In this document: piece after piece, positions 15,509-38,314 of the stretch
How positions within the stretch are numbered: position 1 is the first letter of the stretch
Layout: each line of letters begins with the position of its first letter
Assembly: GCA_965276685.1 (NCBI GenBank)
Contig: OZ255623.1
Coordinates: 1,935,642 to 1,999,641, forward strand
Direction of reading: 5' to 3'
Length of the DNA: 64,000 bases
DNA from: Acidocella sp.
GTDB lineage: Bacteria > Pseudomonadota > Alphaproteobacteria > Acetobacterales > Acetobacteraceae
Translations under genes and position numbers: made by a program
The notes under the pieces: generated by a model
The model's database searches: none
What the model was told of the DNA's origin: nothing
What the model saw: only the letters and a program-made list of their open reading frames with translations

Positions 15509-15513
15509 CTTGT

Positions 15514-17842: not shown

Positions 17843-19234
17843 TTAAAATGCTCCAGATGCGGTTACGAGATGGCCCGCTGTGAAGAAAGATGCCGGCAAT
17901 TCCGGGATCACTTTCCAGTGTGGCTGTATCGCTGCGCTAGCATGATCGGTAATCGAGTAATCGCCCGCATGAAGGTCATAGATCGTAAAATTCTGTGCTA
18001 TGTTGCACGCAGGCACGTCTCCATAAATGCATGGAATCATATGAGCGAATTTCCAGAGCGAGCCGCTGCCGTCGTACACGTCGCTCAAAACAGCGCTGCC
18101 AGTGTCTTCATCGCAATACATAGTCCGTCGCGCATCAACATTGCGGGAACCTGGTTTCAATGTCATTTCAACAATACGACAACGATGCAGCTCCCACCTG
18201 ATAAGGTCCGGATTGATAAAATGTGGTTTGAATTGATCATCCGGCGACGCCTCGCTAAATTTGTTCGAATTATATGGCACGTACATTTCTTTTATGCCGA
18301 TATAATTAAAGTCATATTCATTGAGCTGCCCGTAAAACAGGGCGATCTCGTCCCAGTTCGACGTGCCGCCGGTCAGGGAGTCTGGCGTATCGTATTGTAG
18401 CTCAGGCGCCCGGCGTACCCGGCGTTGCCCAACAAGATATTCCCAAGCCTCGACCGGCTGTTTGCCTTGGTTAAGTGTTTGCAAGCTCATAATGGATCCA
18501 CCGGCCTGGTATGGCGGGGCGGTCGGCACGCCAAATGATTCGAAGGTAATTCCTATAAAGTCCTTCTCGCCGTTTTGGAAGTAGTATGGAGCTTGAAACC
18601 AGGCCTTAGCGCGGGATTCAAGTACGACTTCGCCCTCTGCCGTAATGAAATGATCGTCGGCGACGTAATAGGCGGTTGTCCCCGCCCAGGCGAGTTCGTG
18701 GTTCCAGATCACCTCATGGCCATTTTTCGGGATCGGGAAGGGGATACCACCATAAGCGCCGCTGATCGAATTCCCATCCGCCGAGAGCTGAGCGTTGGTC
18801 GCATTCTTGTAAATATTGTCATAAACCCATTGCGGCGCGATGGCAGTGCGATGCGTCGGAAAGATTTGCATCGTAAAATCCGGACGCTTCTGAAAAAGTG
18901 CTTGCAGCGCCGGAGATAATTTATCCGCATATTGCGCCATATTTTGCGACGTAATTACCATTGTCGGCTTCTCATCCGCGAACGGAATCGGTCGCGTATC
19001 GCCCTGCTGGTAATCGGCTGGCATCGGGTATCCCCCGCCCGTCCAGGCCGGAATGCTGCCATCCACGTTTGCCGCTTTCACCGCACCGAACGGGGTCAAC
19101 TGCCCTTTCAAATCTTCCGGCGTGTAAGCGGGCGGTGTAAAAACAGCCTGTGCGTTAGAGAGCTTTGGCAGAGCGGCGGCGGCAGCCGTGGTTGCCGATG
19201 CCATCAAAACAGAGCGCCGTTTCATTTTTATCAT
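17843..19234 (-). CDS. DUF1329 family periplasmic protein with twin-arginine-like signal
   Basis: KRRSVLM signal; LTPFGAVKAAN.DGSIPAWTGG, AYGGIPFPIP, GQRRVRRAPEL.YD, RWELHR. Confidence 0.88.
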   Translation of the reverse strand: MIKMKRRSVLMASATTAAAAALPKLSNAQAVFTPPAYTPEDLKGQLTPFGAVKAANVDGSIPAWTGGGYPMPADYQQGDTRPIPFADEKPTMVITSQNMAQYADKLSPALQALFQKRPDFTMQIFPTHRTAIAPQWVYDNIYKNATNAQLSADGNSISGAYGGIPFPIPKNGHEVIWNHELAWAGTTAYYVADDHFITAEGEVVLESRAKAWFQAPYYFQNGEKDFIGITFESFGVPTAPPYQAGGSIMSLQTLNQGKQPVEAWEYLVGQRRVRRAPELQYDTPDSLTGGTSNWDEIALFYGQLNEYDFNYIGIKEMYVPYNSNKFSEASPDDQFKPHFINPDLIRWELHRCRIVEMTLKPGSRNVDARRTMYCDEDTGSAVLSDVYDGSGSLWKFAHMIPCIYGDVPACNIAQNFTIYDLHAGDYSITDHASAAIQPHWKVIPELPASFFTAGHLVTASGAF

Positions 19235-19247
19235 TTTTTCGTTTCCC

Positions 19248-20933
19248 TTAAAAAGTACGTTCGACGTTGAATGCGACGAAGTCACGGTCCGCGAATGGGT
19301 CGCGCTGCGGCGGCGCAATATAACGAGTATAGCTGATCCCGCCGGTCCATTTATTCAAATAGATGCCCGAAACGCCGATCGTCAGATCGCCACCACGGTC
19401 GATGCCCGTCCCGTTGAACGCACCCGAATCCGGCGACTTGCCCATGAAATTCCAACCAAGGCCGACATTTGGACTAAGATCCAGACCGGGAATTACTTCA
19501 TAATACGTTGCTGATGCGACACCACGCAGCCCAAATGCCATATGCTGAGCTGCTGCTGTATTGAAATTTTCCTTGTTCTTGATGATCGCAAACAGGTTTT
19601 CGCCAGCAACTTCGCCCAGCACCGCTGACGAATCCCATAGGTCCGGTATTTTTGGTCCAAGATAGATTTCCGAAGCCTGATAATGCGCGACATCGCCAAT
19701 GGCATAAAGCGCATTATGTTCGTTGTTGCCGGCATTTTGGCCAGGTGCCACCTGAACCGTGCTAGTAAGATCCTCATTAGCACGCACGGAAGCTTCGCCC
19801 GCGAAATTGAAGGGCCCGACAGTTGTGCTTGCCGAGGCGCCGTAGATTTGGATGCCATTCGCGTACACCAGTTGATATGTGCCAAGGCTAAGCGCAGTGG
19901 GGGAGCCTGCCGCAGTGCCAGGCACAACCTTGGGGGCACCAGCGCTGAGTTCAACATAAGTTTCCGGCTCGGTATCATTGTATTGCAGGGCGTAAGCTCC
20001 GAAATCCCAGTTCGAACCGGGCGGATCGTAATGCACGGCAGCACCGAATTGGCCCGTATCCGAGCCGCTGATGTCATTCGCACGATATAGATACGCAGCG
20101 GCGCCTGGGCTCGACGGGCTCATATAGGGCACGATCGGCGCCAAATAAATGCGCTGACCCCCTTCGTCCAAAAGATCGGCCGGAGACAAGAAGCTTCCCG
20201 CCGGGATAAAATTGAATTTATCCCATTCAAACTGATAATACGCAGTCATCAATATCGATGGAGTAATCTGCACGGAAACGTCCACCTGCCCTACGGGCAG
20301 AAATATGTCTTTCGCCTGGGTATTTGGTACGCTCGCGCCACGCTCGGCATCGATCGGCGCATTCCCATAGGAAATTCCATTACCCGCAAAAAACAGGCTT
20401 TCTCCAAACAGATTTACAAGTCGGCCAACGCGCACCGAGACGGGAATTCCTGCAATCGTGGACGCGCCGTAGATATAAAGATTACGAAGTTCGATGTTAC
20501 GTCCGGCCTGAGTCTCCGTCGCGGTCGTAAATTTATCCGCCGGCTGTGACGCCGCGTTGTAGGTGGCGCCACTCGTATTTTGTGTCTTTTGGTTATAAAC
20601 TGTATCGTAAAAACTATCGACCGTCGCGTCGAAGCCGTAGCCTTGGTCGCTAATGTCGAACTTGCTGAGCAGATCGACACGGTTGGATACGATACCGGCG
20701 CGTAAATTGTCATCACCGTCATTCGTGTTTTGTGCCGCCCCGGTCTGCCCACCAAGATAAGAGCTGACTGGCGCGGTTCGCTCCAACACCGAATACTGTA
20801 ATGTATTGTCGAAGCGAACGTCCACGCCATTATCAAATTGGTAATCGAACGCATGAGCCGCTTGGCCCGCGCAAAGCAACGCCGCGCAGGCAACACCCGA
20901 CATCAACATAAAACGGCTGGTTCTTAGACTCAT
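19248..20933 (-). CDS. DUF1302 family outer-membrane beta-barrel protein
   Basis: Signal peptide, RFDNTLQY, NTNDGDDN, C-terminal DRDFVAFNVERTF; canonical position upstream of DUF1329. Confidence 0.88.
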   Translation of the reverse strand: MSLRTSRFMLMSGVACAALLCAGQAAHAFDYQFDNGVDVRFDNTLQYSVLERTAPVSSYLGGQTGAAQNTNDGDDNLRAGIVSNRVDLLSKFDISDQGYGFDATVDSFYDTVYNQKTQNTSGATYNAASQPADKFTTATETQAGRNIELRNLYIYGASTIAGIPVSVRVGRLVNLFGESLFFAGNGISYGNAPIDAERGASVPNTQAKDIFLPVGQVDVSVQITPSILMTAYYQFEWDKFNFIPAGSFLSPADLLDEGGQRIYLAPIVPYMSPSSPGAAAYLYRANDISGSDTGQFGAAVHYDPPGSNWDFGAYALQYNDTEPETYVELSAGAPKVVPGTAAGSPTALSLGTYQLVYANGIQIYGASASTTVGPFNFAGEASVRANEDLTSTVQVAPGQNAGNNEHNALYAIGDVAHYQASEIYLGPKIPDLWDSSAVLGEVAGENLFAIIKNKENFNTAAAQHMAFGLRGVASATYYEVIPGLDLSPNVGLGWNFMGKSPDSGAFNGTGIDRGGDLTIGVSGIYLNKWTGGISYTRYIAPPQRDPFADRDFVAFNVERTF

Positions 20934-21131
20934 TTCCACTGTTTCCTCCCTAGTTTTTTAATGCAAATCTCATAACGGCCCTATTTCGGCGTTTCACCCA
21001 AAACCGACCATTTCGATGCAATAATTCTACCTTGAACCACTCCCTGTTGGATCGATTCCAGGAGCATCATCATATTGCTCCTGAAATACGAAATTTTTGC
21101 TCGGCAAAACCTGACCCGACAGTCCGAGATC

Positions 21132-22358
21132 TCAGGATGCCGGTTTACTCGATGCCGGGCTATAGAAGGTTCCCGACGGTACGCGGATCACTTCCCTGCC
21201 CGGCTCGAATCCGAGATTGATGGGATCCTCGCCATTCATGACCTTCTTTATCTCGCGGCGCAGCACGCGGCGCTGTAGGCCAATACCCTTATCGGTCGTT
21301 ACCAGATGCTCCTGCGAATGGCTGGGGAAGCCGTTGGGGCCCTGTGTTGCCTGCGCTTCGTAGTCGTTAGGCGCGTCCTGATGCTCCTCGAAGGTCATTT
21401 CGGTCCAAGGTTTCATCTCGGCGAGCCCGGTGCCTTCAAACGGCCGTTTATAGTCGGGACCTACCCGCGAAAGATTGATGGCGCGCACGTGATTATCATC
21501 GACCGGAACGAAGATGGAGATATGTCCGTTGCTGCCCTCGACCACGCCGGGATTTACCGTAATGTTCGGCGCCACCCAGGTTAAAATACGCAGCATGTCC
21601 CGTCCGTCCGGCAAGGATCTGTGCGCTTTGTAGATAACTCCCACATCGACTTCCTCCCAATCCACCTTCGGCAAAATAGCCGCAGTGGTGGTGAAGTGCG
21701 TCGTCCCAAAATTTGAATGCAGGTAATACGCATGGAACGGGTCCATGTTATTGTCATTTATGTTCAGCCAGGAATAGGGCGCAACATCCGGGCCATTGAG
21801 ATCGGCGTGAGCCGAAAAGCTGTTGTCGAGCACGTTGTAACGCTCGTCCGGGGCGAGTTCTTCCATGTGCTCGAACACTGGGAGCAGCGGCATCTTGTCC
21901 GGCGGTCCCATGTAGGTCCAGACAGCGCCATACCGCTCGCGAACTGGATACCAGGGCTGCCGGGCGGACGCGCGGTTCATTCCGCCTTTTGGCTCGCAGG
22001 GCTGATCAAGGCAGTTACCTTCGACATCGAATTTCCAGCCATGGTAACAGCATCGAATCCCGTCATTCTCTACATGGCCGTAGATCAGAGAGGTGCCGCG
22101 GTGCATGCAATGTGGATATAGGAGACCAGGTCGGCCTTCCTTGTCGCGAAAGAGGATGAGATCTTCGCCCAAAATTCGAATTTGTTGCGGCCGCTCCGTG
22201 ACATTGTGCGAGGCGCGGACCGGTTGCCAGTATCGCCGCATAAACTCTCCGCAAGGCGTGCCAGGCCCGACTTCGATAAGCAAGTTCTCCCAGGTGGACT
22301 GAGGACGACCATAGGCTGTTCCCTCTAGCGGCCGCGCAGCGTAAGTCGTGTCGTTCAT
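21132..22358 (-). CDS. Rieske oxygenase alpha subunit, phthalate 4,5-dioxygenase/LigXa family
   Basis: GPGTPCGEFMRRYWQPV, CMHRG...CCYHGWKFD, DNNMDPFHAYYLH, EHLVTTDKGI. Confidence 0.88.
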   Translation of the reverse strand: MNDTTYAARPLEGTAYGRPQSTWENLLIEVGPGTPCGEFMRRYWQPVRASHNVTERPQQIRILGEDLILFRDKEGRPGLLYPHCMHRGTSLIYGHVENDGIRCCYHGWKFDVEGNCLDQPCEPKGGMNRASARQPWYPVRERYGAVWTYMGPPDKMPLLPVFEHMEELAPDERYNVLDNSFSAHADLNGPDVAPYSWLNINDNNMDPFHAYYLHSNFGTTHFTTTAAILPKVDWEEVDVGVIYKAHRSLPDGRDMLRILTWVAPNITVNPGVVEGSNGHISIFVPVDDNHVRAINLSRVGPDYKRPFEGTGLAEMKPWTEMTFEEHQDAPNDYEAQATQGPNGFPSHSQEHLVTTDKGIGLQRRVLRREIKKVMNGEDPINLGFEPGREVIRVPSGTFYSPASSKPAS

Positions 22359-22409
22359 AATAACTGCCTTTCAAGTATGTATCCACGTTATTAACGTCGT
22401 CGTTTACAA

Positions 22410-22460
22410 GCCGCTAATGCCTTTATTGCTGATCTAATGCAGGAACCTTATAGGTTGGGC
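22410..22460. promoter_or_regulatory. Regulatory cassette, copy 1 (upstream of the 21132-22358 oxygenase)
   Basis: GCCGCTAATGCCTTTATTGCTGATCTAATGCAGGAACCTTATAGGTTGG, near-identical to 23618-23669. Confidence 0.75.
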
Positions 22461-22488
22461 TGCAGCGCTTGCGTTAAGCTGGAATGAG

Positions 22489-23526
22489 CTATTCGACGGA
22501 ATCAGCCGTGGCGTCTTTCGTAATTAGCTTAGTGAGCACGCGCCTGGCGAGGACGCCGGCCGTGTCGCTTTGAAGGAGAATAGGTTTCAAACTCCAGAAA
22601 TCCGTATCTCCCATCATCGCCTGCTGGGCCTCGATCATTGGCTTGTCTTCGTTTCCGAACGCCCTCTCAACAACGCTCAGCAGCCGCTTGTCGAGCGCGG
22701 GTTCGTCAATCCTGAATGACCGAGTGCCTGCCCAGAAGTAGTGCGTTGACCGGTCGGTTTCGGGTGTCATGAAGTGAAGCGTGCGAATTTCGCGTGCTTT
22801 TTCGCGGGGCGTTCCCACTGGGGTCAACCCGAAGATATGGATCATCAGCCCTGGAGGATCCCAAATTACGTCGCTCCAGCCGTCGACAGGTTCGTTAATT
22901 TCGAAAAGCTCGCTAAACATTGGGCTGGGACGCTCCTGGCGCCACGAACGCTCATAGTAAACGCGCGTATCCTCCTGGCGAGCGCGCGGTTTGATTGCGG
23001 CGCTTGCCTCGTCGGCAGCGAACGTCGCGCGATGGACAAAAGCGACATGGGAAAGATCGAGAATATTGTCCGACATCAGCTCATAATTGGCTTGCACATG
23101 CACGTATGAAGCCATGTGGGCATATCCTGATTCCGGCCGGAGGAAGAACAGGTCGGGCAGCGTCGAGGCGTCGGCTAAGGCTGGATCACCCATCCAGACC
23201 CAAAGGCCGCCGTAAATCTCGATCAGTGGATATTTTTTCAGCCTGGCAGCGGGCGGAGTCGCACCGTCTGCCTGCGGATTAAACACGCATTTCCCTTGCC
23301 CGTCGAATTGGAGCCCGTGGTAGGGGCATTGAATATTATCTTCCCGCACCTCGCCCAAATGCAGTGGCGCAAACCGGTGAGGACAGCGATCGGATAACGC
23401 GACGGCGGTTCCATCGCTTGTCCTATATATCAGGACCTGCTCGTTCAGGATGATGCGCGCGAATGGGGTGGCCTTGATCTCGTCTGACCAAGCCGCCAGG
23501 TACCAGCAGTTTTTAAGGAAGGCCAT
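22489..23526 (-). CDS. Rieske O-/N-demethylase-type oxygenase (VanA/DdmC/TsaM-like)
   Basis: MAFLKNCWY, CPHRFAPL, CPYHGLQFD, DNILDLSHVAFVH, HFMTPET..STHYF, EDKPMIEAQQ. Confidence 0.9.
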   Translation of the reverse strand: MAFLKNCWYLAAWSDEIKATPFARIILNEQVLIYRTSDGTAVALSDRCPHRFAPLHLGEVREDNIQCPYHGLQFDGQGKCVFNPQADGATPPAARLKKYPLIEIYGGLWVWMGDPALADASTLPDLFFLRPESGYAHMASYVHVQANYELMSDNILDLSHVAFVHRATFAADEASAAIKPRARQEDTRVYYERSWRQERPSPMFSELFEINEPVDGWSDVIWDPPGLMIHIFGLTPVGTPREKAREIRTLHFMTPETDRSTHYFWAGTRSFRIDEPALDKRLLSVVERAFGNEDKPMIEAQQAMMGDTDFWSLKPILLQSDTAGVLARRVLTKLITKDATADSVE

Positions 23527-23617
23527 AAGTAACTCCGTCATGTGCCAAGTCAATTCTTGAGCGATTCGTCCCGGTTCTCGCTGTGTCCAAGTCACGCGTT
23601 AACGCCGCAGTCCTCAG

Positions 23618-23669
23618 GCCGCTAATGCCCTTATTGCCGATCTAATGCAGAAAGCTTATAAGCTTGGAC
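23618..23669. promoter_or_regulatory. Regulatory cassette, copy 2 (between VanA-like gene and divergent LysR)
   Basis: Two CTAATGC direct repeats 20 bp apart plus perfect palindrome AAGCTTATAAGCTT (23652-23665). Confidence 0.75.
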
Positions 23670-23672
23670 GTT

Positions 23673-24605
23673 ATGAAGCTGAGCCAAATCAGAAGTTTCT
23701 TGGCTGTCGCTGAACGGGGGAGCGTGCAGGGCGCGGCGCGTCAGCTGGGCATCACCCAGCCGGCGGTCACTCGGAGCATCCACGACCTGGAACGGGCATT
23801 AGGCGCACCGCTTTTCCAACGCTCCGGCACCGGTATGACGTTGACCAGCATCGGAAAAGCGGTTCTTCGGCGGGCTGGCGGTGTCCAGGCAGAACTCGAC
23901 CGAATTCAGGACGAAGTCGCGCAATTGGCAGGCCGCCAATCCGGCACGGTGGCCGTCGGCCTGTCCTTTGTGGCGCATGCGGGTTTGCTCCCGAAGGTCA
24001 TAGGCCCTTTTCGGCGGCAGGCTCCGGAGGTTCAGCTGGAAATCAGAGAAGCGTTGTTTAGCCAGGTTGAAGCCGATATTCATGCAGGCAGCATTGATTT
24101 TTACGTAGGCCCTATGCTGCCGGAACAGAGCTTCCACGGCGTCCTGTCGATAGAGCCGTTGTTTAAAAACTGGCGTCAGATATACTGTCGCCGGGGCCAC
24201 CCCTTGGCGAATGCGGGCTCGCTTTCGGATTTGGAAGGTGCAGATTGGATTACGACTTCCAGTGCATCAAACTCCACCAATGAGTTAGCGCTTTTGTTCA
24301 AGCACTACGGTCTTCCGCCACCCCACGTCGCAGTGAAGGCGCAATCGATGTTGAGCATGACGTTTATCGTGGGATCGTCGGATTTGCTGGCTGCCATACC
24401 GCGGCAATTTCAACAATTGCTTAGTATCAGAAGCACATTGGCACGCATACCAGTATCAGAACAGCTTTATTCTACGACGATCTGCATCGTTAAGCGAGCC
24501 TCTGTGCCCCTCACCCCGGCAGCAGAAAAGTTGAGTGATATGTTCCGAAGGGCCGCGATTGCGCATGCAGGCACTTTACCTGACACACCATCACTCACCC
24601 GATAG
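23673..24605 (+). CDS. LysR-family regulator (TsaR/AbgR-like)
   Basis: MKLSQIRSFLAVAERGSVQGAARQLGITQPAVT HTH; PLTPAAE tail. Confidence 0.92.
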   Translation: MKLSQIRSFLAVAERGSVQGAARQLGITQPAVTRSIHDLERALGAPLFQRSGTGMTLTSIGKAVLRRAGGVQAELDRIQDEVAQLAGRQSGTVAVGLSFVAHAGLLPKVIGPFRRQAPEVQLEIREALFSQVEADIHAGSIDFYVGPMLPEQSFHGVLSIEPLFKNWRQIYCRRGHPLANAGSLSDLEGADWITTSSASNSTNELALLFKHYGLPPPHVAVKAQSMLSMTFIVGSSDLLAAIPRQFQQLLSIRSTLARIPVSEQLYSTTICIVKRASVPLTPAAEKLSDMFRRAAIAHAGTLPDTPSLTR

Positions 24606-24844
24606 TTATGCGGGGCCTGGATTTGGGGCAGCATAGACCCCGAGCGAAAAATCGGTGTGCTGAAATCAGGCGCACAGAACCCGCAAAGCCAAACCGATGA
24701 CGTCAATGATCTCGCCCCTTGGCATAGAACCGTGGCGTCGCTTAGATGCGCGCATCGCAGCATGCTGCGCGAACGTGGCAGATGTTCTCCTCAATTTTAA
24801 TGTTTTTACGAAAATTGAGATTTTTTACCGACATCGTTTGTCTA

Positions 24845-25230
24845 GGCTCAGGACCCATTAATATCTTGTGTCGGCGCGGCGAGGTGTGATTCTGGGATGG
24901 CAAAAGGGAGTTTCGCCATGTCTGATTTATTCTTGCTGAATGAGCGTCTATTGGCTCGCATTGCACCGCATTTCCCGCTGTCGCATGGCGTGAAGCGGGT
25001 TGATGACCGGCGTGTGATCAGCGGGATCATCTACGTGATCCGAGACGGGCTGCAATGGAAAGACGCGCCAAAAGCCTATGGCCCGCACAAGACCTTATAC
25101 AATCGCTTCGTCCGTTGGAGTCTGCTTGGTGTGTTCGACCGCATCTTCACGGCCCTAGCCAAACGGGGCGGGAAGCCTGAGCAGACCATGATCAACGCGA
25201 CGCATCTGAAGGCACACCGCACGGCAGCCA
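24845..25230 (+). mobile_element. IS5-family (IS427-group) element, left end and truncated transposase
   Basis: CTAG followed by GGCTCAGGACCCATTAAT end motif; RVDDRRVISGIIYVIR.GLQWKDAP..YGPHKTLYNRFVRWS. Similarity ends at HRTAAS. Confidence 0.85.
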
Positions 25231-25355
25231 GTTACCGTCAAAACAATCTGGTTGCCACCGATAGCTACCGATAGAAACCGCGAGTTTTCACTTTTTGTTT
25301 CAATTGTTTAAGGGGTAATTTCGATAGTCCAAGATACCCTTCGAAAGACGTTATT

Positions 25356-26906
25356 TCATTCCCACTCGATCGTTGCCGGGGGCTTGCTCGTAATGTCATA
25401 GGTCACGCGGTTTATCCCCCGCACCTCGTTCACAATCCTGTTGGAAACTCGGCTGAGAAATACCATGTCGAACGGATACACATCCGCCGTCATGCCGTCC
25501 GTGCTCGTCACCGCACGCAGCGCGCAAACCTGGTCATAAGTCCGCCCATCACCCATCACGCCGACGGATTTCACCGGCAGTAGCACGGCGAATGCCTGCC
25601 AGATTGCATCGTACAATCCCGCAGCGCGGATCTCCTCCAGATAAATCGCATCCGCCTTCTGCAAAATCTCCACCGCCTCGCGCGTCACCGCGCCCAGAAT
25701 GCGGATGGCCAACCCCGGCCCGGGGAAAGGATGGCGGCCTACAATCGTCTCCGGCAGGCCAAGCTCGCGGCCCAGTTCGCGCACCTCGTCTTTGAAAAGT
25801 TCCCGCAACGGCTCTACAAGCTTTAGCTTCATAAACTCCGGCAATCCGCCGACATTATGGTGCGACTTGATCGTGACACTTGGGCCGCCCAGCGCACTTA
25901 CCGATTCAATCACATCCGGGTATAGCGTGCCCTGCGCGAGAAAATCCGCACCGCCAAGCTTGGTTGCTTCCTCGTCGAACACCTCGATAAACAGCCGCCC
26001 GATAATTTTGCGCTTCTGCTCCGGGTCCGTCACCCCCGCCAACTCGCCCAGAAACAAATCCGACGCATTGCGATGGATGAGTTTGATGTTGAACTGGTCA
26101 CGGAACACCCGCACGACCTCTTCCGCCTCGCCGCCGCGCAGCACCCCATGGTCCACGAAAATACACGTTAGCTGGTCGCCGATCGCCTCATGGATCAACG
26201 CCGCCGCAACGGAAGAGTCCACCCCGCCCGAAAGCCCGCAAATAACTTTGCCGGAACCAACCTGGGCACGGATTTTAGCAATCTCCGCCTGGCGAAACCC
26301 GGCCATCGTCCAATCGCCCGATAACCCGCAAACCTTATGCGTGAAGTTTCGCAGCAACTGCGCGCCATGCGGCGTATGCACCACCTCCGGGTGGAACATC
26401 GCACCGTAAAACCGCCGCGCGTCGTCGGCAATCAGCGCGAATGGCGCGCCTTCGCTAACCGCAACGGTGCGAAACCCCGGCGGCGGCGCTGAAATGCGGT
26501 CGCCATGGCTCATCCACACCTGCTCGCGCGCGCCCACACTCCAAATGCCATCGAACAGCGCGCAATCTTCCACCACTTGCACATAGGCACGGCCAAACTC
26601 CCGTATGTCCGCGCCCGCGACATCACCGCCGAGCTGCGCGCACATCACCATCTGGCCGTAGCATATGCCAAGCACCGGCACCCCGGCCTGGAACACATAT
26701 TCCGGCGCGCGGGGGGAACCCGCATCCGCCACGCTGGCGGGGCCGCCCGAGAGGATAATCCCCATGGCGCCAAACCCGGCAATCCGCTCCGGCGCAGCAT
26801 TGTAGGGCAATATCTCGCAGTAAACGCCGCATTCCCGCACCCTTCGGGCGATAAGCTGCGTTACCTGGCTGCCAAAATCGAGGATCAGTATCTTTTCTTC
26901 ATGCAT
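25356..26906 (-). CDS. guaA: GMP synthase (glutamine-hydrolyzing)
   Basis: [40 protein letters not shown]. Confidence 0.98.
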
Positions 26907-26922
26907 AAGCGGGACTAGCCCA

Positions 26923-27456: not shown

Positions 27457-30262
<2,806 letters not shown>

Positions 30263-30296
30263 CTAACTGCCGCAACGCCACGGCGCAAGACCAACT

Positions 30297-30968
30297 CTAT
30301 TCCGGCCGGAATCCCGCCGCCACCACATACATCTCTTTGGAATCCTTGCGGCTCGCGGGCGGCTTCGCGTGCTTCACGGATTTAAACCGCAACTTCAAAA
30401 GGTTGAGCATGTCCCGCTCGGCACCGCCCTGGAACAGCTTGGCGACAAACACCCCGCCGGGGTTGAGTATCTCTATCGCAAACGCCAGCGCCGTCTCCGC
30501 CAGCGCCATAATCCGTATATGGTCCGTCGCCACATGCCCGGTCGTATTCGGCGCCATGTCGGAGAGCACGATATCGGCCTTGCCCCCGAGCATTTCCATC
30601 AGCCGCGTATCCATGCCCTCGGCCAGAAAATCGCCCTCGATAAACTCTGCACCCGCTACAGGGATGATCGGCAATAGATCGATCCCCACGACCTTCGAAG
30701 CCCCCCGCTGCAACGCCACCTGCGCCCACCCACCGGGTGCCGCGCCCAGATCCACAACCCGTGCTTCCTTGCCGATGAGGCCGTATTTCTCATCCAGCTC
30801 GATCAGCTTGAACGCGGCACGGGAGCGATACCCTTGCGCCTTCGCTGCCTGCACATAAGGGTCGTTCAGCTGGCGGGCGAGCCAAGCCTGGCTGGATGTG
30901 CTGTGCTTGCGCGCGTTTTTCAGCCGCACGGCTTCGCGGCGCGGCGGCACAGACGGGTTTTCGGTCAT
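30297..30968 (-). CDS. rlmE: 23S rRNA Um2552 methyltransferase RlmE/FtsJ
   Basis: YRSRAAFKL, DLGAAPGGW, LSDMAPN, KPPASRKDSKE. Confidence 0.95.
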   Translation of the reverse strand: MTENPSVPPRREAVRLKNARKHSTSSQAWLARQLNDPYVQAAKAQGYRSRAAFKLIELDEKYGLIGKEARVVDLGAAPGGWAQVALQRGASKVVGIDLLPIIPVAGAEFIEGDFLAEGMDTRLMEMLGGKADIVLSDMAPNTTGHVATDHIRIMALAETALAFAIEILNPGGVFVAKLFQGGAERDMLNLLKLRFKSVKHAKPPASRKDSKEMYVVAAGFRPE

Positions 30969-31003
30969 TCCGGGAGTTTAGGGCCGCACCAAGAGAAAAT
31001 AAA

Positions 31004-32038
31004 CTACCGCGTCCCGCGCATCAGCCGCATCAACATCCCCTCGCGCAGGCCCCGGTCCGCCACCAGCAGCTCCGGCACCTGCCATAGCTCGTGGATCGCC
31101 GCGTAAATCGCGCAGCCAGGCAGCACGAAGTCCACACGGTCAGCGCCGATGCATGGGTGGCGGCTCAAGCCCTCCCGCCCCAGCGCGCGGGCTTCCGCCA
31201 ACGCGGCATCCACGGCGGGGCGGTCCAGGGAAAGCCCATCCACCAGCCCGCGCCGGTATCGGTCCAGCTTCAGCGAGACGCCCGCCAGCGTCGTCACCGT
31301 CCCGCTGGTGCCGATCATCAACACCCCGCCTTGGCGGATCTCCTGCCCAATCCGGTGCACCGCCTCGAATGGCCGCAGCATCGCCGCGATATCCGCCACC
31401 ACATCCGCGAACCCATCCTCGGTATAGCAGGCCTCAGCGCAACGCTCCGAGAGCGTGACCACGCCCACAGGCAGCGACAGATACCCGATCAGCTCCGGCG
31501 CCGAACCATCGCAATTTACCCGGACCCAGGCAATCTCGGTCGAGCCGCCGCCAATATCGAACAGCAGCGCCCGCCGCCCCGCCTTGCAAATCAGCGAGGC
31601 GCAGCTCTCCACCGCCAGCTCCGCCTCCTCGCGCGGGTTGATGATCTCCAGCGGCAGACCTGTTTTTTCCCGCGCTAGAGTGACAAACTCCGCGCCGTTT
31701 TCCGCCTGGCGGCAGGCTTCCGTCGCAATCGCCCGCAGCCGCAACGGGCCGGTGCCGGTGTCCGCGGCCCAGCGCCGTGCCCGGTCAGCGCAAACGCTTA
31801 AGGAGGCAATCGCCCGCTCCATCGCCACCGCCGAGAGCCGCCCCGTCTCATAAAGCCCCTCCCCCAGCCGCACGACGCGCGAGTAGCTATCCAGCACATG
31901 AAAACCCCGGGCCGACGGCGTACCGACCAGCATCCGGCAGTTGTTCGTGCCAAGATCGATCCCGCCAAACACCGGACGCCGCGCGCCTCGACGCATTGTG
32001 GCGCCGTATCGGGGCTGAAAATAGGTCTGGCTGGCCAT
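31004..32038 (-). CDS. Ppx/GppA phosphatase family protein
   Basis: IDLGTNNCR, IATEACR, EEAEL, DIGGGSTE, DRGLREG. Confidence 0.92.
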   Translation of the reverse strand: MASQTYFQPRYGATMRRGARRPVFGGIDLGTNNCRMLVGTPSARGFHVLDSYSRVVRLGEGLYETGRLSAVAMERAIASLSVCADRARRWAADTGTGPLRLRAIATEACRQAENGAEFVTLAREKTGLPLEIINPREEAELAVESCASLICKAGRRALLFDIGGGSTEIAWVRVNCDGSAPELIGYLSLPVGVVTLSERCAEACYTEDGFADVVADIAAMLRPFEAVHRIGQEIRQGGVLMIGTSGTVTTLAGVSLKLDRYRRGLVDGLSLDRPAVDAALAEARALGREGLSRHPCIGADRVDFVLPGCAIYAAIHELWQVPELLVADRGLREGMLMRLMRGTR

Positions 32039-32188
32039 GGATTTGTACTGTCGCGCTTTAATGCCCCGTTCGGCAAGCCGGAAACTACCTCAGCCCCCTG
32101 CCCGCGGGTTAAATTTGTGACGGTGCGATGGCAATCGCGATATTGCAGCCGCGCCCTCGCGGTGCTAACGGTGCTGCGCTGTTACCGT

Positions 32189-32259
32189 TGGGGGATAGTT
32201 TAGCGGTAGAACTCCTGGCTCTGACCCGGGCAGCCTTGGTTCGAATCCAGGTCCCCCAG
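32189..32259 (+). tRNA. tRNA-Gln (anticodon CTG); CCA not encoded
   Basis: TGGGGGA/TCCCCCA acceptor stem, D-arm, CTCTGAC anticodon loop, GGTTCGAATCC T-loop. Confidence 0.93.
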
Positions 32260-32277
32260 AATCCTTTTGCAATCCTC

Positions 32278-32340
32278 CTAGAGCGCGATGACATCAAACT
32301 AGAGCGCGATGACATCAAACTAGAGCGCGATGACATCAAA
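32278..32340. repeat. Three perfect tandem 21-bp repeats directly after tRNA-Gln
   Basis: CTAGAGCGCGATGACATCAAA x3; partial inverted copy TTTGATGTC at 32361-32369. Confidence 0.95.
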
Positions 32341-32555
32341 TCGACCCATTTATGGTTCGCTTTGATGTCTGAATCGCCCTCTGTACATATGTAGACCCGG
32401 ATGACTCACCCTTCTTTCAGGCTGCGCCACCCGCAACCGCTACGGCTATCATAACACCTTCACCTGCTCCCGTTACATTCGCTCCCCCGCCAAGCCCAGC
32501 TCATTCCCGGGTCGTCGTTTCCAATGGCGGCAGTGTTTTAACAGTATCGGGCATA

Positions 32556-32882
32556 TTGGCCGGTGTCTCCGGTAACCCGATCAAAGTCGGCTTCTTTCAG
32601 GATCCACAAAACCCTGACTGCACTCAAACCGGGGAGCATACCGTCTTCCGGCTCACATCCAACCCGCAACACGGAACGGTGCACATTCTCCACGAAGAAA
32701 ATTTTCCGAAGCACAACGAAAAAAGCATCGACTACAAACGCGATACGATGCGAACCCCCGGCGTTGATGTAACCTACAGCCCGGCGCCTGATTATGCCGG
32801 ACCGGACGCAATCTCCTTCGATATCTTTGTTCCGGATGGTCGTGAAATGGTGGTCAATGCCTCGATTAACATCTCGCCTTGA
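32556..32882 (+). CDS. Hypothetical Ig-like (Big_9-like) domain protein, probably 5'-truncated
   Basis: HGTV...YSPAPDYAGPDAISF motif. Frame is open back to about 32373 through a Pro/Ala-rich stretch with no ATG. Confidence 0.45.
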   Translation: MAGVSGNPIKVGFFQDPQNPDCTQTGEHTVFRLTSNPQHGTVHILHEENFPKHNEKSIDYKRDTMRTPGVDVTYSPAPDYAGPDAISFDIFVPDGREMVVNASINISP

Positions 32883-32899
32883 GCGGAAGCTAACGGGAC

Positions 32900-34246
32900 T
32901 TAAAGCACGCTAACTTCCCCGGTTCTAGCGGAAGTCCTCCGCAGTTCCAAAAGCAGAACGGAGGTTGCCGCCAGCAAGGGCGCAACTCCCAACAGCTGGA
33001 AGATTGCATCCGGCCCCCAGCCAAGGCTCATCAAAAAACTCACGAGCAGTTGCAGCAGCACCTGGCCCAATCCGCCCATTCCCATCGCCCAGCCGATCCC
33101 CGTGGATCGCATGGCCGTGGGATACCGGATCGCCGCGAGCGCAAGCCCGCCGGAAACACCGATGCCGCCGACGCAAAACGAAATAACCGCCAGATCAGCC
33201 GCCATCCACAAAAGCGAATACGACGCATAGCCCACCGCAGCCGTCCCCGCCCCTCCGATGATGAGTGCGGGAACCATCGTTGCGATAGCGCCGAATTTTT
33301 CCTTGAGCCATCCAGCGTTTGCAGCGCCAAACAACATCCCCATGCCGCCGCAGCCCAGCACAACAGCGGCGCGCGGCAGCGGAATACCATGGTTATGCAT
33401 CAAGGTTGGCGCCCAGAAAAAAATTGTCGTTCCCAGCCCCACGGTCACAAAAAACAAAACCCAGAGCAACAGCGATTCAACAGTCTTGCCATCGGAAAAC
33501 AGATTGCTCACCGGCGAGCCTTTAAGAACAATCTCGTCGTTTACGAGCTGAACATCCGGCTGCACGCCCGGCGCGATTCGCGAGACGATGCGCCGCATCT
33601 GAGCGGAATCACGCTTCTTGGTCAGCAGAAACCGGATCGATTCCGGCAGCCAGACCATAAGGATGAGCACGGCAACGATCGGAAACGCGCCGCCGATCAG
33701 GAAGACCGAATGCCAGCCGAGCCGCGCGAGGATGATGGCGTCCATGATCGCCCCGGCATTTGCGCCAATCGGCCAAGCCGCCCACACCAGGCTCGTCACC
33801 ACCGCGCGATGCTTAACCGGCGCGTATTCCGAGGCGAGCGCGATAAAGCAAGGCGTTGCACCGCCCAGGCCGACACCACCAATAAAGCGGATGATGAGCA
33901 AGGCGCTGAACGTGTTCGCAAATGCCGTCGCGATGGTAAAAACACCGAAGATAAGCGTCGAGAGAACCAATATGCGCTTGCGCCCAAAACGATCAGCGAG
34001 CGATCCCATCACCGGCGTCCCGATCACAGCGCCAAAAAGCCCGGCGGAGAATACCGGCCCCAGATGCGCCTGCGTCAACCGCAAACTATCGGCGATGAGC
34101 GGCGCGGAAATACCGATCGACGATGTGTCCAATCCATTGAGGAAAGCGACCATCGCGCATAAGGCGGCGACCTGGACCAGCAACGAGCCAACCGGGCGTT
34201 CGTCGATCGCCTTCGCAACATGAAAAATCTTGGCCGATGCGTCCAT
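32900..34246 (-). CDS. MFS aromatic acid:H+ symporter, paralog of 10524-11885
   Basis: FLNGLD, LADRFGRKR, FIALASEYAP, RSTGIGW. Confidence 0.9.
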   Translation of the reverse strand: MDASAKIFHVAKAIDERPVGSLLVQVAALCAMVAFLNGLDTSSIGISAPLIADSLRLTQAHLGPVFSAGLFGAVIGTPVMGSLADRFGRKRILVLSTLIFGVFTIATAFANTFSALLIIRFIGGVGLGGATPCFIALASEYAPVKHRAVVTSLVWAAWPIGANAGAIMDAIILARLGWHSVFLIGGAFPIVAVLILMVWLPESIRFLLTKKRDSAQMRRIVSRIAPGVQPDVQLVNDEIVLKGSPVSNLFSDGKTVESLLLWVLFFVTVGLGTTIFFWAPTLMHNHGIPLPRAAVVLGCGGMGMLFGAANAGWLKEKFGAIATMVPALIIGGAGTAAVGYASYSLLWMAADLAVISFCVGGIGVSGGLALAAIRYPTAMRSTGIGWAMGMGGLGQVLLQLLVSFLMSLGWGPDAIFQLLGVAPLLAATSVLLLELRRTSARTGEVSVL

Positions 34247-34262
34247 CGTTTTCTCCCTTACG

Positions 34263-35144
34263 TTACGCTGCCGGTTCCCAAACCGCGTGTGCATCCCCGC
34301 GTTTCAGGCGGCCCAGGTTTGGCCACGGAAAATGCGGGGTGAAACTCTGCCAGCCCGGCTCCAGAAGCATTGCGATAAGCTTGTGCCGTGTTTCTACGGC
34401 CAGGTCAGGGTCCATGTCCATCGGGTTGTAAACATGCGGCGTCTGGATCGACACCGCCGAATCGGCGATGGCATCGGCCGTGAACAGTAGTTTTTCATTG
34501 CCGCTTGAGAGAATGTAGCCCATTTGGCCGGGTGCATGGCCAGGCAGCAAAATCGTGCCGATACCCGGCAGCACCTCCTCCCCGGCGCGAAAGGTTTTCA
34601 GCGTATCGCCTGCAAAGCCCAGCATCCGCTTCGCATGTTCCGCCATCTGAATTTTAATCGGCGGCGGCGATGCGGTCCATTGCAGGTCGAGCGGCTCCTG
34701 GCTCCAGAAAGCCAGCTCCTCAGCGCCGACGTAATAGGTCGCGTTCGGATAAAGCTTCGCGCCGTCGCTGCCGTACATGCCGCCCACATGGTCGGGGTGG
34801 ATATGCGAGATGAGCACGGCGTTGATCTCAGCCGGAGAAATGCCCGCAGCTTTGAGTGACGCGGGAACGCGCCCCACGGTGCGTAACGGCTGGCCATGGC
34901 TCATCGGATTCAATCCGAAGCCAGTGTCCATCAACACCAGTCCGGTACCGGGCAGCCGAACCAGCAGGCACGAGAGCGGCAGCAACACAAGGTCTTGGCC
35001 CGGCACCGGCGGCCTGGGAATGCCGCCATCGCTAAGCGCGATACATTCGATCTCGCCAAATTGAAAGCGATGAAAGCGCGGCTGCGCGCCGGGCAATGCA
35101 ACAAAATCGTCCATTGCGCCGGTTTCGGAAGTCTTAGCGTTCAA
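34263..35144 (-). CDS. MBL-fold metallo-hydrolase (methyl-parathion hydrolase/lactonase-like)
   Basis: ALSDG, LMDTGFG, HIHPDH, PGHAPG, AD, HFPWP. Confidence 0.88.
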   Translation of the reverse strand: MNAKTSETGAMDDFVALPGAQPRFHRFQFGEIECIALSDGGIPRPPVPGQDLVLLPLSCLLVRLPGTGLVLMDTGFGLNPMSHGQPLRTVGRVPASLKAAGISPAEINAVLISHIHPDHVGGMYGSDGAKLYPNATYYVGAEELAFWSQEPLDLQWTASPPPIKIQMAEHAKRMLGFAGDTLKTFRAGEEVLPGIGTILLPGHAPGQMGYILSSGNEKLLFTADAIADSAVSIQTPHVYNPMDMDPDLAVETRHKLIAMLLEPGWQSFTPHFPWPNLGRLKRGDAHAVWEPAA

Positions 35145-35223
35145 GTGATATCCTTACTTTCAAGTGGCCTGCTCGCAAGCTCGCAGCGAGCAGGCGTTTA
35201 TTCCAGAACGCGTGGGACCAGAA

Positions 35224-36612
35224 TTAAAACCCTCCGGCTTTCGCGGCCAGTTCCTGCGCTGAGAAGAAAGAATCCGGCAGCTGCGCGATGATCTGATAAG
35301 ATGGCCGGCTTGAAGAATTGGTCGCAGAGGTAATCGAACAAACATTGGAGTGCAGATCATAGGTTATGAAGAAAGAGCCAGCGACATGGCAGGGAATGTC
35401 CGGCATGAGCGCCGGGACCATATGCTGGAATTTCCACAAGCCGTTTTGGGCGTCATAAATTTCACCCAGCAGTGCAGCACCCCCGTCTTCATCGGTATAG
35501 ACCATACGCCGCGCATCGACATTTCGTGCGCTGGACTTCACTGTCATCTCGACGACCCTCACACGGTGAAGTTCCCACCTCACGATATCCGGATTAACGA
35601 AATGTGCTGAAAACTGCGTTCCCGGCTCCGCATTCCATGCCTTATTGGAATTATACGGAACAAACATCTCCTTTACGCCGAGATAATTGCAGTCGTATTC
35701 ATCGAGCTTGCCGGAAAAGATATTAAATTCGTCCCAGTTCACCGCTCCGCCGGTAAGCGAGTTTGGTGTATCGTATTGCAACTCCGGCGCGCTACGCACC
35801 CGACGCTCGCCTTGGAGATATTCATAACCCTGAACCGGCGTGAGATAAGCATTCAGCGGCGTCCGCGTAACTATAAAGCCGCCGGCTTCATAGGGCGGCG
35901 CAATGGGGTCGAGAAATGCTTCGAGGTAAAGGCCGCCCCAGCTGTTCTGTCCATTTTCGAAATAATAAGGATATTGGACCCACGAACGGTTCACACCTTC
36001 GAGAACAACTTCCCCAGAGGCGGTAATCGTATAACTAAACGTTTCGTTCTTGAACGTTGTTCCAGCCCAGGCAAGCAGATGATTCCACATAACCTGATGG
36101 CCATTTGCCGGAATCGGGAAGGGGATGCCGCCATAGGCGTTGGCAACCGCGTTACCATCATTCGTCAACTGCGCGCTTGATGCGTTTTTATAGATGGAGT
36201 CATAAATCCATTGCGGCGCGCCGGAGGTACGATGTGTCGGGAATACCTCCATTTTATAGTCCGGAAATTTCTGGAACATCGCCAACTGCCCTGGCGATAG
36301 CTTGTCCTTGTACTGCTCCGCGTTGGAGGCTGTAATGGTGAACAGCGCTGCGTCATTCAAAATTGGCGGAATGGGCCGCACCTCTCCCGATGTATAATCA
36401 GGCGGCACAGTGGTGTAGCCGCCGGTCCATGCCGGGATCGTGCCGTCTGCATTTCCGGCCCGCACTGCCCCAAACGGCGTCAGCGCACCTTTCAAATCAT
36501 TAGCGGTATACTGCGCCGTTTGCGCGCGGGACAGCTTCGGCGCAGCCGCAACCGCAACCGCAACCGTCGCGGCGGAAGCCATAAGAATAGAACGTCGATT
36601 CATTTTTACCAT
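35224..36612 (-). CDS. DUF1329 family protein, second copy
   Basis: NRRSILM signal; LTPFGAVRAGNADGTIPAWTGG, ERRVRSAPEL.YD; collinear with 17843-19234. Confidence 0.88.
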   Translation of the reverse strand: MVKMNRRSILMASAATVAVAVAAAPKLSRAQTAQYTANDLKGALTPFGAVRAGNADGTIPAWTGGYTTVPPDYTSGEVRPIPPILNDAALFTITASNAEQYKDKLSPGQLAMFQKFPDYKMEVFPTHRTSGAPQWIYDSIYKNASSAQLTNDGNAVANAYGGIPFPIPANGHQVMWNHLLAWAGTTFKNETFSYTITASGEVVLEGVNRSWVQYPYYFENGQNSWGGLYLEAFLDPIAPPYEAGGFIVTRTPLNAYLTPVQGYEYLQGERRVRSAPELQYDTPNSLTGGAVNWDEFNIFSGKLDEYDCNYLGVKEMFVPYNSNKAWNAEPGTQFSAHFVNPDIVRWELHRVRVVEMTVKSSARNVDARRMVYTDEDGGAALLGEIYDAQNGLWKFQHMVPALMPDIPCHVAGSFFITYDLHSNVCSITSATNSSSRPSYQIIAQLPDSFFSAQELAAKAGGF

Positions 36613-36637
36613 TTTTGCTTTCCTCCTTGGAATATTC

Positions 36638-38314
36638 TCAGAACGTCCGCTCGACGTTAAACGAAACGAAATCGCGGTCGGCTGCCGGGTCGCGAGCAGG
36701 CGGCGCGATGTAGCGCGTGTAGCTGAATCCGCCCGTCCATTTGTTCAGATAAATACCAGATACTCCGATCGTCAGATCGCCGCCGCGATCGATGCCGGTA
36801 CTGTTAAACACAATCGTATCTGGCGCGCGGCCAGAGAAATTCCAGCCCAGGCCAATGCTTGGCGTGACTTCCAAACCCGGCAGAACCTCAAAATAGGTAA
36901 CCGAACCAATTGTGCGCAGACCCTCAGCCATGTGCCCGGATTCGGCCCGGTCATAATTCTCTTCATTCTTCGTGATCGAGAGCAGACTATCAGCCGCGGC
37001 CTCGCCAATCACCGACGAACTATCCCAGAACGACGTTTTCGGCCCCAGGTAGATTTCCGAAACCTGGTAATGCAGCGTATTGCCAATCGCGTAAAGCGCA
37101 TGATTTGAGTTGTTGGCTTGCTCCCCTGGCGCCACGCTCACCGAGCTATTGAGGTTTTCGTTCGTCCGGATGGAAACCTCGCCCGCAAAATTTACCGGGC
37201 CATACGTCGCGCTCGATGACGCACCAAATATCTGAATACCATCGGCATAAACCACTCTATAAGTCCCGAGCGCAAGCGCAGCCGGTGAACCTGCCGCAGT
37301 ACCAGCGACGGGTTTCGGTCCGGTCGGGTTGACATAGGTATAAATGGTCGGCGCGGTGTTATTGAATTGCAGGCCATAGAGGCCAAAATCCGCCGTTGTA
37401 TTATTTGGGTTCCAGTGCAATGAACCGCCGAACTGCCCGGTATTGGATCCGCTCATATCCTTCGCGCGATAGAAATAAAGCGCCGAGCCGGGCTTCGCCG
37501 CGCTGATATAAGGCGAAGCACTAGCGGCATAAATGCGTTGAGCACCTGCGCCGAGGACATCGGTGAAGGAGAAGTAGCTACCAACCGGCGCCAGCAGTTC
37601 GCTTTCCCATTCAAATTGATAGTACGCGCTGACTGCGATCGTCGGAGTAAGCTGCACGCTTAGCGATGCTTGACCGACCGGCAAAAACAGGTTTTTAGCC
37701 TGCGTGTTCGGCACGCTGCTCGCGCGCTCGATGTCGATCGGCGACTGGCCAGCGGCAATGCCGTTCGCGGCAAACAGCAGACTTTCGCCGAACTGATTTA
37801 CGAAGCGTCCAACGCGCAAAGTGACCGGCACCGGGCCTAGATTACCGGAACCATAAACAAACAGGTTTCGCAGTTCGATGTTGCGGCCCGCCTGTGTCAC
37901 CGTCTCGCTGGTGAATTTACTGGCAGGCGTCGAAGCCGGATTATAGGTCGAACCGTTGGTGCTTTGCGTCTTCTGGTTATAAACCGTGTCGTAGAAACTA
38001 TCGATCGTGGTGTCGAAACCAAATCCATTATCGCTGATATCGAACTTGGAAAGCAGATCGACGCGATTAGAGACGATGCCCGAGCGCAGGCTGTCATCGC
38101 CGTCGTTAGTGTTTCCAGCGTTAACCTTAGGGCCGCCAACTTCAGGGTTAAACGGGGCGACGCGCTCAACTACGGAATACTGCAAAGTATTGTCAAAGCG
38201 CACATCCACGCCATTGTCGAACTGATAATCGAACGCGTGCGCGGGATGCCCCAAGGCGAGCAAAGCCACGGAGGCAACGCCTGAAAGCAATAGATTTTTC
38301 TTTTTCATCGACAT
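36638..38314 (-). CDS. DUF1302 family outer-membrane protein, second copy
   Basis: FDYQFDNGVDVRFDNTLQY, C-terminal DRDFVSFNVERTF; collinear with 19248-20933. Confidence 0.88.
   Translation of the reverse strand: MSMKKKNLLLSGVASVALLALGHPAHAFDYQFDNGVDVRFDNTLQYSVVERVAPFNPEVGGPKVNAGNTNDGDDSLRSGIVSNRVDLLSKFDISDNGFGFDTTIDSFYDTVYNQKTQSTNGSTYNPASTPASKFTSETVTQAGRNIELRNLFVYGSGNLGPVPVTLRVGRFVNQFGESLLFAANGIAAGQSPIDIERASSVPNTQAKNLFLPVGQASLSVQLTPTIAVSAYYQFEWESELLAPVGSYFSFTDVLGAGAQRIYAASASPYISAAKPGSALYFYRAKDMSGSNTGQFGGSLHWNPNNTTADFGLYGLQFNNTAPTIYTYVNPTGPKPVAGTAAGSPAALALGTYRVVYADGIQIFGASSSATYGPVNFAGEVSIRTNENLNSSVSVAPGEQANNSNHALYAIGNTLHYQVSEIYLGPKTSFWDSSSVIGEAAADSLLSITKNEENYDRAESGHMAEGLRTIGSVTYFEVLPGLEVTPSIGLGWNFSGRAPDTIVFNSTGIDRGGDLTIGVSGIYLNKWTGGFSYTRYIAPPARDPAADRDFVSFNVERTF

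Follow-up and report, generated by a model that had tools for sequence, protein, structure and literature searches.

The 64,000-nucleotide stretch of an Acidocella sp. genome analyzed here (contig OZ255623.1, hereafter the window) contains two copies of an adjacent gene pair, DUF1302-DUF1329, which encodes a predicted outer-membrane beta-barrel and a predicted LolA-like periplasmic protein. All positions refer to the window unless they are given as genome positions, and features were assigned from a listing of open reading frames (ORFs) and a profile scan with Pfam (table 1). An initial annotation of the window had claimed that the two genes occur twice in the same order and on the same strand, which was confirmed by the Pfam matches, all four of which lie on the minus strand. 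The proteins of the two modules are collinear as claimed, with full-length BLASTP alignments and identities between copy 1 and copy 2 of 65% (DUF1302), 56% (DUF1329), and 51% for the downstream transporters of the major facilitator superfamily (MFS). Both DUF1302 copies exceed the PF06980 threshold (23.2 bits) and cover profile positions 4-541, and both DUF1329 copies exceed the PF07044 threshold (23.1 bits). DUF1302 and DUF1329 form a very widespread envelope gene pair of the Proteobacteria that is biochemically unsolved. The window pairs belong to this known kind; what is unusual is that they are part of an expanded, pathway-linked set.

The two modules are separated by housekeeping genes (guaA, a GNAT gene, rsmB, guaB, ftsJ, and ppx), and each is flanked by a divergent LysR-type regulator. 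The CYP199 match of the P450 in module 1 corresponds to 4-methoxybenzoate demethylases, and the predicted enzymes of this module together point to methoxylated, lignin-type aromatic acids. The BKACE enzyme of module 1 (minus strand), which is encoded among genes for aerobic aromatic catabolism, exceeds the equivalog cut-off of the profile for 3,5-dioxohexanoate:acetyl-CoA acetone transferase, an enzyme with a triacetate-type substrate; this hints at a polyketo-acid ring-fission product. In module 2 the sole enzyme, an AidB-like hydrolase of the MBL fold for which no signal peptide was detected, suggests a lactone or ester substrate. Since the modules carry different enzymes, different substrates are plausible, and this part of the earlier proposal of a diversification for two substrates is retained, but the modules are not the sister duplicates that the proposal implied (see below). 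Both MFS transporters have TIGR00895 as their top family and yet score under the curated subfamily cut-off of 418.55 bits; they resemble the AAHS transporters PcaK and MhpT, which are also found in aromatic operons, but do not reach the equivalog cut-offs of these families.

Table 1. Predicted genes and signals of modules 1 and 2, with window positions
Feature	Position	Strand	Evidence and remarks
LysR-type regulator	23664..24605	+	Divergent from module 1 operon; Pfam HTH_1, LysR_substrate
VanA/DdmC-like Rieske aryl O-demethylase oxygenase	22489..23595	-	Pfam Rieske and VanA_C; top PDB match dicamba O-demethylase DdmC, 265 bits
Second Rieske oxygenase	21132..22358	-	Pfam Rieske
DUF1302 copy 1, predicted outer-membrane beta-barrel	19248..20939	-	PF06980, 367.6 bits
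DUF1329 copy 1, predicted LolA-like periplasmic protein, RR signal	17843..19234 (ORF to 19318)	-	PF07044, 374.6 bits
Predicted intrinsic terminator immediately 3' of DUF1329 copy 1	17799..17824	-	dG -17.5 kcal/mol, z -4.2
CYP199-like cytochrome P450	16495..17712	-	Pfam p450; top PDB match CYP199, 260 bits
Extradiol (VOC-type) ring-cleavage dioxygenase	15514..16473	-	Pfam Glyoxalase; weak matches to HpaD and catechol 2,3-dioxygenase
MhpA-like FAD aromatic hydroxylase	13937..15544	-	NF004829, 535.9 bits (cut-off 390 exceeded)
Amidohydrolase_2 of LigW/IDCase/ACMSD type (decarboxylase or hydrolase)	12932..13912	-	Pfam and PDB matches
BKACE beta-keto acid cleavage enzyme	11987..12916	-	NF053538, 481 bits (cut-off 430 exceeded)
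AAHS-like MFS transporter 1	10524..11885	-	TIGR00895, 302.8 bits, then PcaK and MhpT; beyond the interval initially annotated
LysR-type regulator	38519..39496	+	Divergent from module 2 operon; Pfam
DUF1302 copy 2	36638..38323	-	PF06980, 346.8 bits
DUF1329 copy 2, predicted LolA-like, RR signal	35224..36612	-	PF07044, 352.1 bits
Cytoplasmic MBL-fold hydrolase, lactonase-like	34263..35144	-	Pfam Lactamase_B; AidB-like, 120 bits (below cut-off); without signal peptide
AAHS-like MFS transporter 2	32900..34294	-	TIGR00895, 293.8 bits, then PcaK and MhpT

Copy number and paralogy of the pairs

The genome, a single contig of 3.2 Mb that is 99.4% complete, encodes 15 DUF1302 and 16 DUF1329 proteins, organized as 15 adjacent pairs and one lone DUF1329 gene. 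The initial framing as two modules had to be abandoned: the window copies are two out of 15 pairs and are not each other's nearest paralogues. GuaB shares 88-92% identity with the proteins of Acidocella species, and the best DUF1302 relatives were found in metagenome-assembled genomes of Acidocella. In a sample of the genus, 9 out of 24 genomes contain DUF1302 with at most eight copies each, and in a sample of the family 11 out of 150 near-complete genomes contain it with at most five copies each. A third pair (genome C1:1929393-1932533) is located 3-6 kb before the first base of the window and is flanked by Rieske and VanA-like oxygenase genes, so that three pairs lie inside ~45 kb. Three loci (genome ~2817-2820, 2828-2831, and 3188-3192 kb) display the reversed order, DUF1329 followed by DUF1302, and the lone DUF1329 gene (genome ~2486.5-2487.8 kb) adjoins a gene for a VanA-like oxygenase.

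Maximum-likelihood trees of the genome paralogues are congruent for DUF1302 and DUF1329 and contain three deep lineages. One clade comprises 12 pairs, including both window copies and the RND-linked pair at 3019 kb. Within the trees, window copy 1 is the sister of the pair at 3040 kb (100/100 support) and window copy 2 forms a long lone branch; as the window copies are not sisters, the two modules do not represent a simple duplicate pair. A duplication of the three-gene module en bloc was rejected on the same grounds and because the nearest paralogue of MFS-1 (68% identity) is found by the 3019-kb locus. DUF1302 was better conserved than DUF1329 in 55 out of 55 paralogue comparisons (mean identity 75.8% vs. 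61.5%), a contrast in sequence conservation that would fit a conserved channel combined with a diversifying binder.

Two genome segments of at least 13 kb (2827940-2841138 and 3188631-3203277) stem from a recent segmental duplication and display 97-99.9% DNA identity, with identical DUF proteins in the two copies. The boundary of the duplication falls exactly on the stop codon of DUF1302, and beyond this boundary one copy has an MFS gene downstream and the other an amidohydrolase gene. All 31 DUF1302 and DUF1329 genes have a low GC content (0.52-0.53) and a low GC content at third codon positions (0.56-0.58) relative to the genome gene means of 0.61 and 0.70. Their GC content ranks in approximately the lowest 5-12% of genes and the adjoining catabolic genes are near average; a foreign origin or a codon bias related to expression or export are possible explanations.

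Predicted folds and export signals

A structural model of DUF1329-2 (AF2, based on an alignment of 83 sequences) was obtained with high confidence (pLDDT 92.3, pTM 0.90). The top Foldseek match is LolA3 (9tp6, E 5.5e-14, TM 0.81 on the target), and further matches include the DUF1329 crystal structure 4z48, 3bk5, and 3buu, followed by LolA, RseB, and MucB. The matches cover the C-terminal ~290 residues, and the model confidently assigns to DUF1329-2 the unclosed beta-barrel fold of a LolA-like carrier. The model of DUF1302-1, based on 14 paralogues, is of low confidence (pLDDT 44.6) and contains ~18 long strands, with Foldseek matches to porins, Occ channels, and AlgE at TM 0.35-0.53; a profile search of DUF1302 against the PDB sequences returned no match. 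Published models describe an 18-strand DUF1302 barrel that co-folds with DUF1329 at ipTM 0.84 (PMC13499233; PMC10866462), and the low-confidence model is in line with them. The proposal that the pair consists of an outer-membrane channel and a periplasmic shuttle is accordingly well matched by the fold predicted for DUF1329-2 and more loosely by DUF1302, which is porin-like at low confidence and carries a Sec-type signal ending in AHA|F and a C-terminal phenylalanine (..ERTF). An esterase function of DUF1302/DUF1329 (Thompson et al. preprint) was considered and rejected here, based on the LolA-like DUF1329-2 without a hydrolase match and the porin-like DUF1302.

The most plausible start of DUF1329-1 is MIKMKRRSVLMAS (MIKMKRRS, ~19234), located 13 nt past the DUF1302 stop codon, and DUF1329-2 starts at MVKMNRRSILMAS. 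The two proteins carry the twin-arginine (RR) motifs MKRRSVLM and MNRRSILM. The twin-arginine-like signals that had been noted on both copies are present as motifs, but their scores of 17.1 and 9.4 bits lie below the cut-off of the Pfam TAT_signal profile (22.7 bits), which one paralogue in the genome exceeds with 27.2 bits. All 16 DUF1329 paralogues of the genome share an RR motif, an Ala/Ser/Thr-rich h-region, and a basic residue ahead of the AxA site, and the genome encodes TatC. Sec-type signals that lack RR were found in homologues of gammaproteobacterial and other origin (Marinobacterium, Endozoicomonas, and Rhizomicrobium), indicating that the Tat-like leader is a trait of the lineage and not of the family.

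Genomic neighborhoods and transcription units

Nearly all 15 pairs are located in aromatic-degradation clusters. The zone within 10 kb of any DUF gene represents 10% of the genome and contains 6 out of 7 extradiol dioxygenase homologues, 6 out of 7 Rieske oxygenases, 7 out of 19 VanA-like oxygenases, 9 out of 22 amidohydrolase_2 genes, 2 out of 3 P450s, and 3 out of 6 BKACE genes; these counts are descriptive and not a test, as the loci are related by duplication. On other metagenomic contigs, aromatic genes are present in five out of six homologue contexts.

Other degraders rely on FadL/TodX channels, OprD/Occ channels, or TonB receptors for the outer-membrane step of aromatic or hydrophobic substrates. 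The genome-wide search returned no match to FadL/TodX (PF03349) or OprD/Occ (PF03573), and only two TonB-dependent receptors are encoded in the genome. The position that is normally held by such channel genes is occupied by the predicted DUF1302 barrels. TodX and TbuX (FadL family) and OpdK and BenF (OprD/Occ) are barrels encoded in aromatic operons, often together with an AAHS MFS transporter such as PcaK or BenK. DUF1302 resembles them in position and predicted function only, as a predicted outer-membrane barrel inside aromatic-catabolic operons, but shares no sequence family with them, is larger, and is always accompanied by a LolA-like partner. In Sphingobium sp. SYK-6, the TonB-dependent receptor DdvT and the MFS transporter DdvK, which are encoded with Lig-type O-demethylase and decarboxylase genes, take up a lignin-derived biphenyl acid. 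With its two steps, first through the outer membrane and then by MFS, this uptake offers a further parallel to the role proposed for the pairs, but its outer-membrane step is energized by TonB whereas the Acidocella pair is without an encoded energizer in a genome with two TonB receptors.

No RND (PF03176) or BNR (PF14870) gene was found within the window by the genome-wide profile search. The initial annotation, which had noted the absence of RND and YCF48-like genes, was correct for the window, but four BNR/RND sets are present elsewhere in the genome as canonical DUF1302-DUF1329-BNR-RND(HAE3) clusters (genome ~898-904, 2514-2521, 2964-2971, and 3014-3021 kb). Matches to PF14870 (BNR/Ycf48-like) occur only at ~901, 2517, 2967, and 3017 kb, and matches to PF03176 (RND of the HAE3 type, COG1033) beside DUF pairs only at ~903, 2515, 2964, and 3014 kb, leaving 11 out of 15 pairs without BNR/RND partners. 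An MFS gene lies within 10 kb of five out of 15 pairs, four pairs have BNR/RND genes, and the 3019-kb locus has both. Among 25 DUF1302 loci of other genomes, a small sample for cross-taxon neighborhood statistics, 12 to 15 are canonical RND clusters and two have an AAHS-like MFS gene; in six Pfam-annotated contexts of closer homologues, BNR/RND was found in three, MFS in three, and both in two. RND and MFS genes had been set against each other as alternative partners of the pair, but their co-occurrence at several loci speaks against treating them as such. In two Acidocella relatives, the nearest MFS orthologues (48-50% identity) are separated from any DUF1302 gene by 27 kb or by hundreds of kb, and neither an MBL nor an MFS gene follows the closest orthologue of DUF1329-2 (76% identity). 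Overall, the MFS gene looks like an ordinary member of aromatic operons.

Both pairs are located upstream of catabolic genes and of paralogous AAHS-like MFS genes, as had been described, but MFS-1 lies outside the interval initially annotated, 6 kb and five genes downstream of pair 1, and a terminator intervenes. The terminator consists of a GC-rich 9-bp stem (GCGCCAC..GTGGCGC) followed by a U-run between pair 1 and the P450-to-MFS genes, so that pair 1 and the two upstream Rieske genes are probably a unit that is separate from, or attenuated toward, the P450-to-MFS genes. A GC-rich hairpin, GCGCCACGA..TCGTGGCGC, with a T-run recurs after four DUF1329 genes (window 17799-17824; genome ~1929, 3017, and 3039 kb), and its recurrence marks it as a putative shared terminator or attenuator that was carried along with the duplicated pair. 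In module 2, DUF1329-2 is followed by a 79-nt gap with a hairpin that lacks a U-tract, a feature consistent with a single DUF1302-DUF1329-MBL-MFS operon.

Elsewhere in the window, a VanA-like Rieske oxygenase gene (6691-7797, minus strand) contains an in-frame TAG/TGA-type stop after ..EYYTLT and adjoins a LysR gene (7835-8769, plus strand) that is broken across two frames; the two are apparently decaying copies of a catabolic module. A REC-PAS-GGDEF-EAL protein and an Hpt-bearing hybrid histidine kinase are encoded at 40453-44753 (plus strand), by the LysR gene of module 2 and a SnoaL-like gene.

Possible roles of the pairs

A close relative of the pairs is AmeABCD of Castellaniella defragrans, composed of AmeA (DUF1302), AmeB (DUF1329), AmeC (COG4447), and AmeD (HAE3-RND) and interpreted as an exporter: disruption of ameB by Tn5 impairs growth on monoterpenes, and deletion of AmeABCD lowers monoterpene tolerance and raises the accumulation of Nile Red (PMC6394551). 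It shares with the Acidocella pairs the two families, their order, and the location in a catabolic island for hydrophobic substrates, and the full four-gene form is present at four loci of the Acidocella genome. The window pairs differ in having no AmeC- or AmeD-type genes; enzyme and MFS genes follow them, and they are two out of 15 copies. PP_0765/PP_0766 of Pseudomonas putida KT2440, required on Tween 20 and modelled by co-folding as a barrel-carrier complex, are likewise an orphan pair beside catabolic genes, with the BNR/RND genes (PP_2018/PP_2019) unlinked (10.1101/2020.07.04.188060; PMC10866462), but they are single-copy, LuxR-regulated, and linked to fatty esters, whereas the Acidocella pairs are LysR-flanked, aromatic-linked, RR-bearing, and multiplied. 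In Delftia, DUF1302 and DUF1329 proteins were detected in outer-membrane vesicles (PMC3110197), and a passage of a preprint citing Shetty et al. states that a DUF1329 deletion impairs growth on phenanthrene (10.1101/2024.12.15.628547). The published genetic studies support an involvement of the pair in hydrophobic-substrate use and give no direction of transport (PMC6394551; 10.1101/2020.07.04.188060; 10.1101/2024.12.15.628547).

The reading that we favor, with only slightly more than even confidence, is that the pairs acquire lignin-type aromatic acids: each would be a module of the outer membrane and periplasm that is linked to a given substrate, and the MFS transporter would work independently of it at the inner membrane. 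The observations behind this reading are the paralogy, copy number, predicted folds, signals, and genomic association of the pairs and the lack of matches to other channel families, whereas its cargo, specificity, and direction of transport are inferred. A pair consisting of an outer-membrane barrel and a LolA-like periplasmic carrier exported by Tat or Sec would have been recruited into an aromatic-catabolic operon, in which it would admit a hydrophobic or protonated aromatic substrate and chaperone it across the outer membrane and the periplasm. Multiplication to 15 copies, with the carrier diverging faster than the barrel, would have produced substrate-specific entry modules that take the place of the todX/fadL, oprD/benF, or TonB-receptor genes of other degraders. 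Module 1 would serve a pathway for methoxylated aromatic acids and module 2 a substrate of the lactone or ester type, and the AAHS-like MFS transporters would act separately at the inner membrane as ordinary members of the catabolic operons and not as obligate partners of the pair. A more specific version is put forward only tentatively: that the pairs of this acidophile may have been freed from the RND/BNR engine and have become passive, substrate-specific aromatic entry modules replacing FadL-, OprD-, and TonB-type channels. Each of the fast-diverging, Tat-exported carriers would then pick up a particular class of aromatic acid, protonated in the acidic periplasm, and pass it on to transporters of the inner membrane.

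Several observations weigh against acquisition. The sole direct transport data on the family, the Nile Red measurements on AmeABCD, indicate efflux (PMC6394551), and the DUF1302 model is of low confidence (pLDDT 44.6). General porins might admit the proposed substrates, which are small aromatic acids, and the origin of the loci by duplication makes the catabolic enrichment counts non-independent. Moreover, the orphan pairs could be served in trans by the four BNR/RND sets, whose presence in the genome means that independence of RND cannot be claimed for the window pairs.

This last point leads to the main rival of the acquisition modules, which we consider unlikely: that the orphan pairs are exchangeable adaptors, at the outer membrane and in the periplasm, of the four BNR/HAE3-RND sets and, like AmeABCD, expel or buffer toxic aromatics and intermediates as a safety valve and not as an importer. 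The lowered monoterpene tolerance and raised Nile Red accumulation after AmeABCD deletion argue for it (PMC6394551), as do the cofitness of Pseudomonas DUF pairs with unlinked BNR/RND genes (10.1101/072470; 10.1101/2020.07.04.188060), the retention of four BNR/RND sets, one of which (~3014-3021 kb) falls in the 12-member clade of the window copies, and the frequency of canonical four-gene clusters at related loci (12 to 15 out of 25) and in the contexts of closer homologues (3 out of 6). Against it, 15 pairs face four engines, a genome rich in aromatic catabolism has no other evident family of uptake channels, and the pairs lie within putatively substrate-inducible catabolic operons, often as the first genes. 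A role in envelope maintenance, in which the pairs move a lipid or another component of the cell envelope and the copies near catabolic genes remodel the membrane under solvent or acid stress, appears improbable. Pleiotropic phenotypes prompted a proposal of 'export of cell wall component' from cofitness data (10.1101/072470), LolA-like folds usually carry acyl chains, and the HAE3 relatives (HpnN) move hopanoids (PMC6394551), but a housekeeping lipid role hardly needs 15 diverging copies, each with a local LysR gene and a different oxygenase set, and most genomes of the genus and the family have no or few copies.

We give equally little credence to the dedicated three-part import system of the initial annotation, in which DUF1302, DUF1329, and the AAHS-like MFS transporter form a chain with direct hand-over from carrier to MFS that was duplicated and diversified for two substrates. 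In its favor, each of the four AAHS-like MFS genes that are close paralogues (>45% identity) is found no more than 10 kb from a DUF pair, module 2 has the appearance of a single DUF1302-DUF1329-MBL-MFS operon, and on one metagenomic contig an MFS gene lies immediately ahead of a lone DUF1329 gene. However, an MFS gene is near only 5 out of 15 pairs, and the closest relatives do not preserve the linkage: the MFS orthologues of Acidocella relatives are unlinked to DUF1302, and neither MBL nor MFS is encoded downstream of the nearest DUF1329-2 orthologue. Within the genome, a terminator parts pair 1 from its MFS operon, the segmental duplication stops at the DUF1302 stop codon with an MFS gene in one copy and none in the other, MFS and RND genes occur together at several loci, and the pair next to the closest paralogue of MFS-1 belongs to a different lineage.

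The acquisition reading and its rivals can be approached in this genome as a natural test bed, in which 15 diverging pairs each neighbor a local regulator and the genes of a distinct aromatic pathway that can be interpreted in part. As no competing uptake channel family was found, the pairs constitute a built-in specificity panel for import versus export and for dependence on RND. The pairs may also help to explain how acidophiles handle weak aromatic acids, which are membrane-permeant and toxic at low pH. If the pairs are entry modules that operate without RND, this would represent the first assignment of a cargo and a direction for the family.

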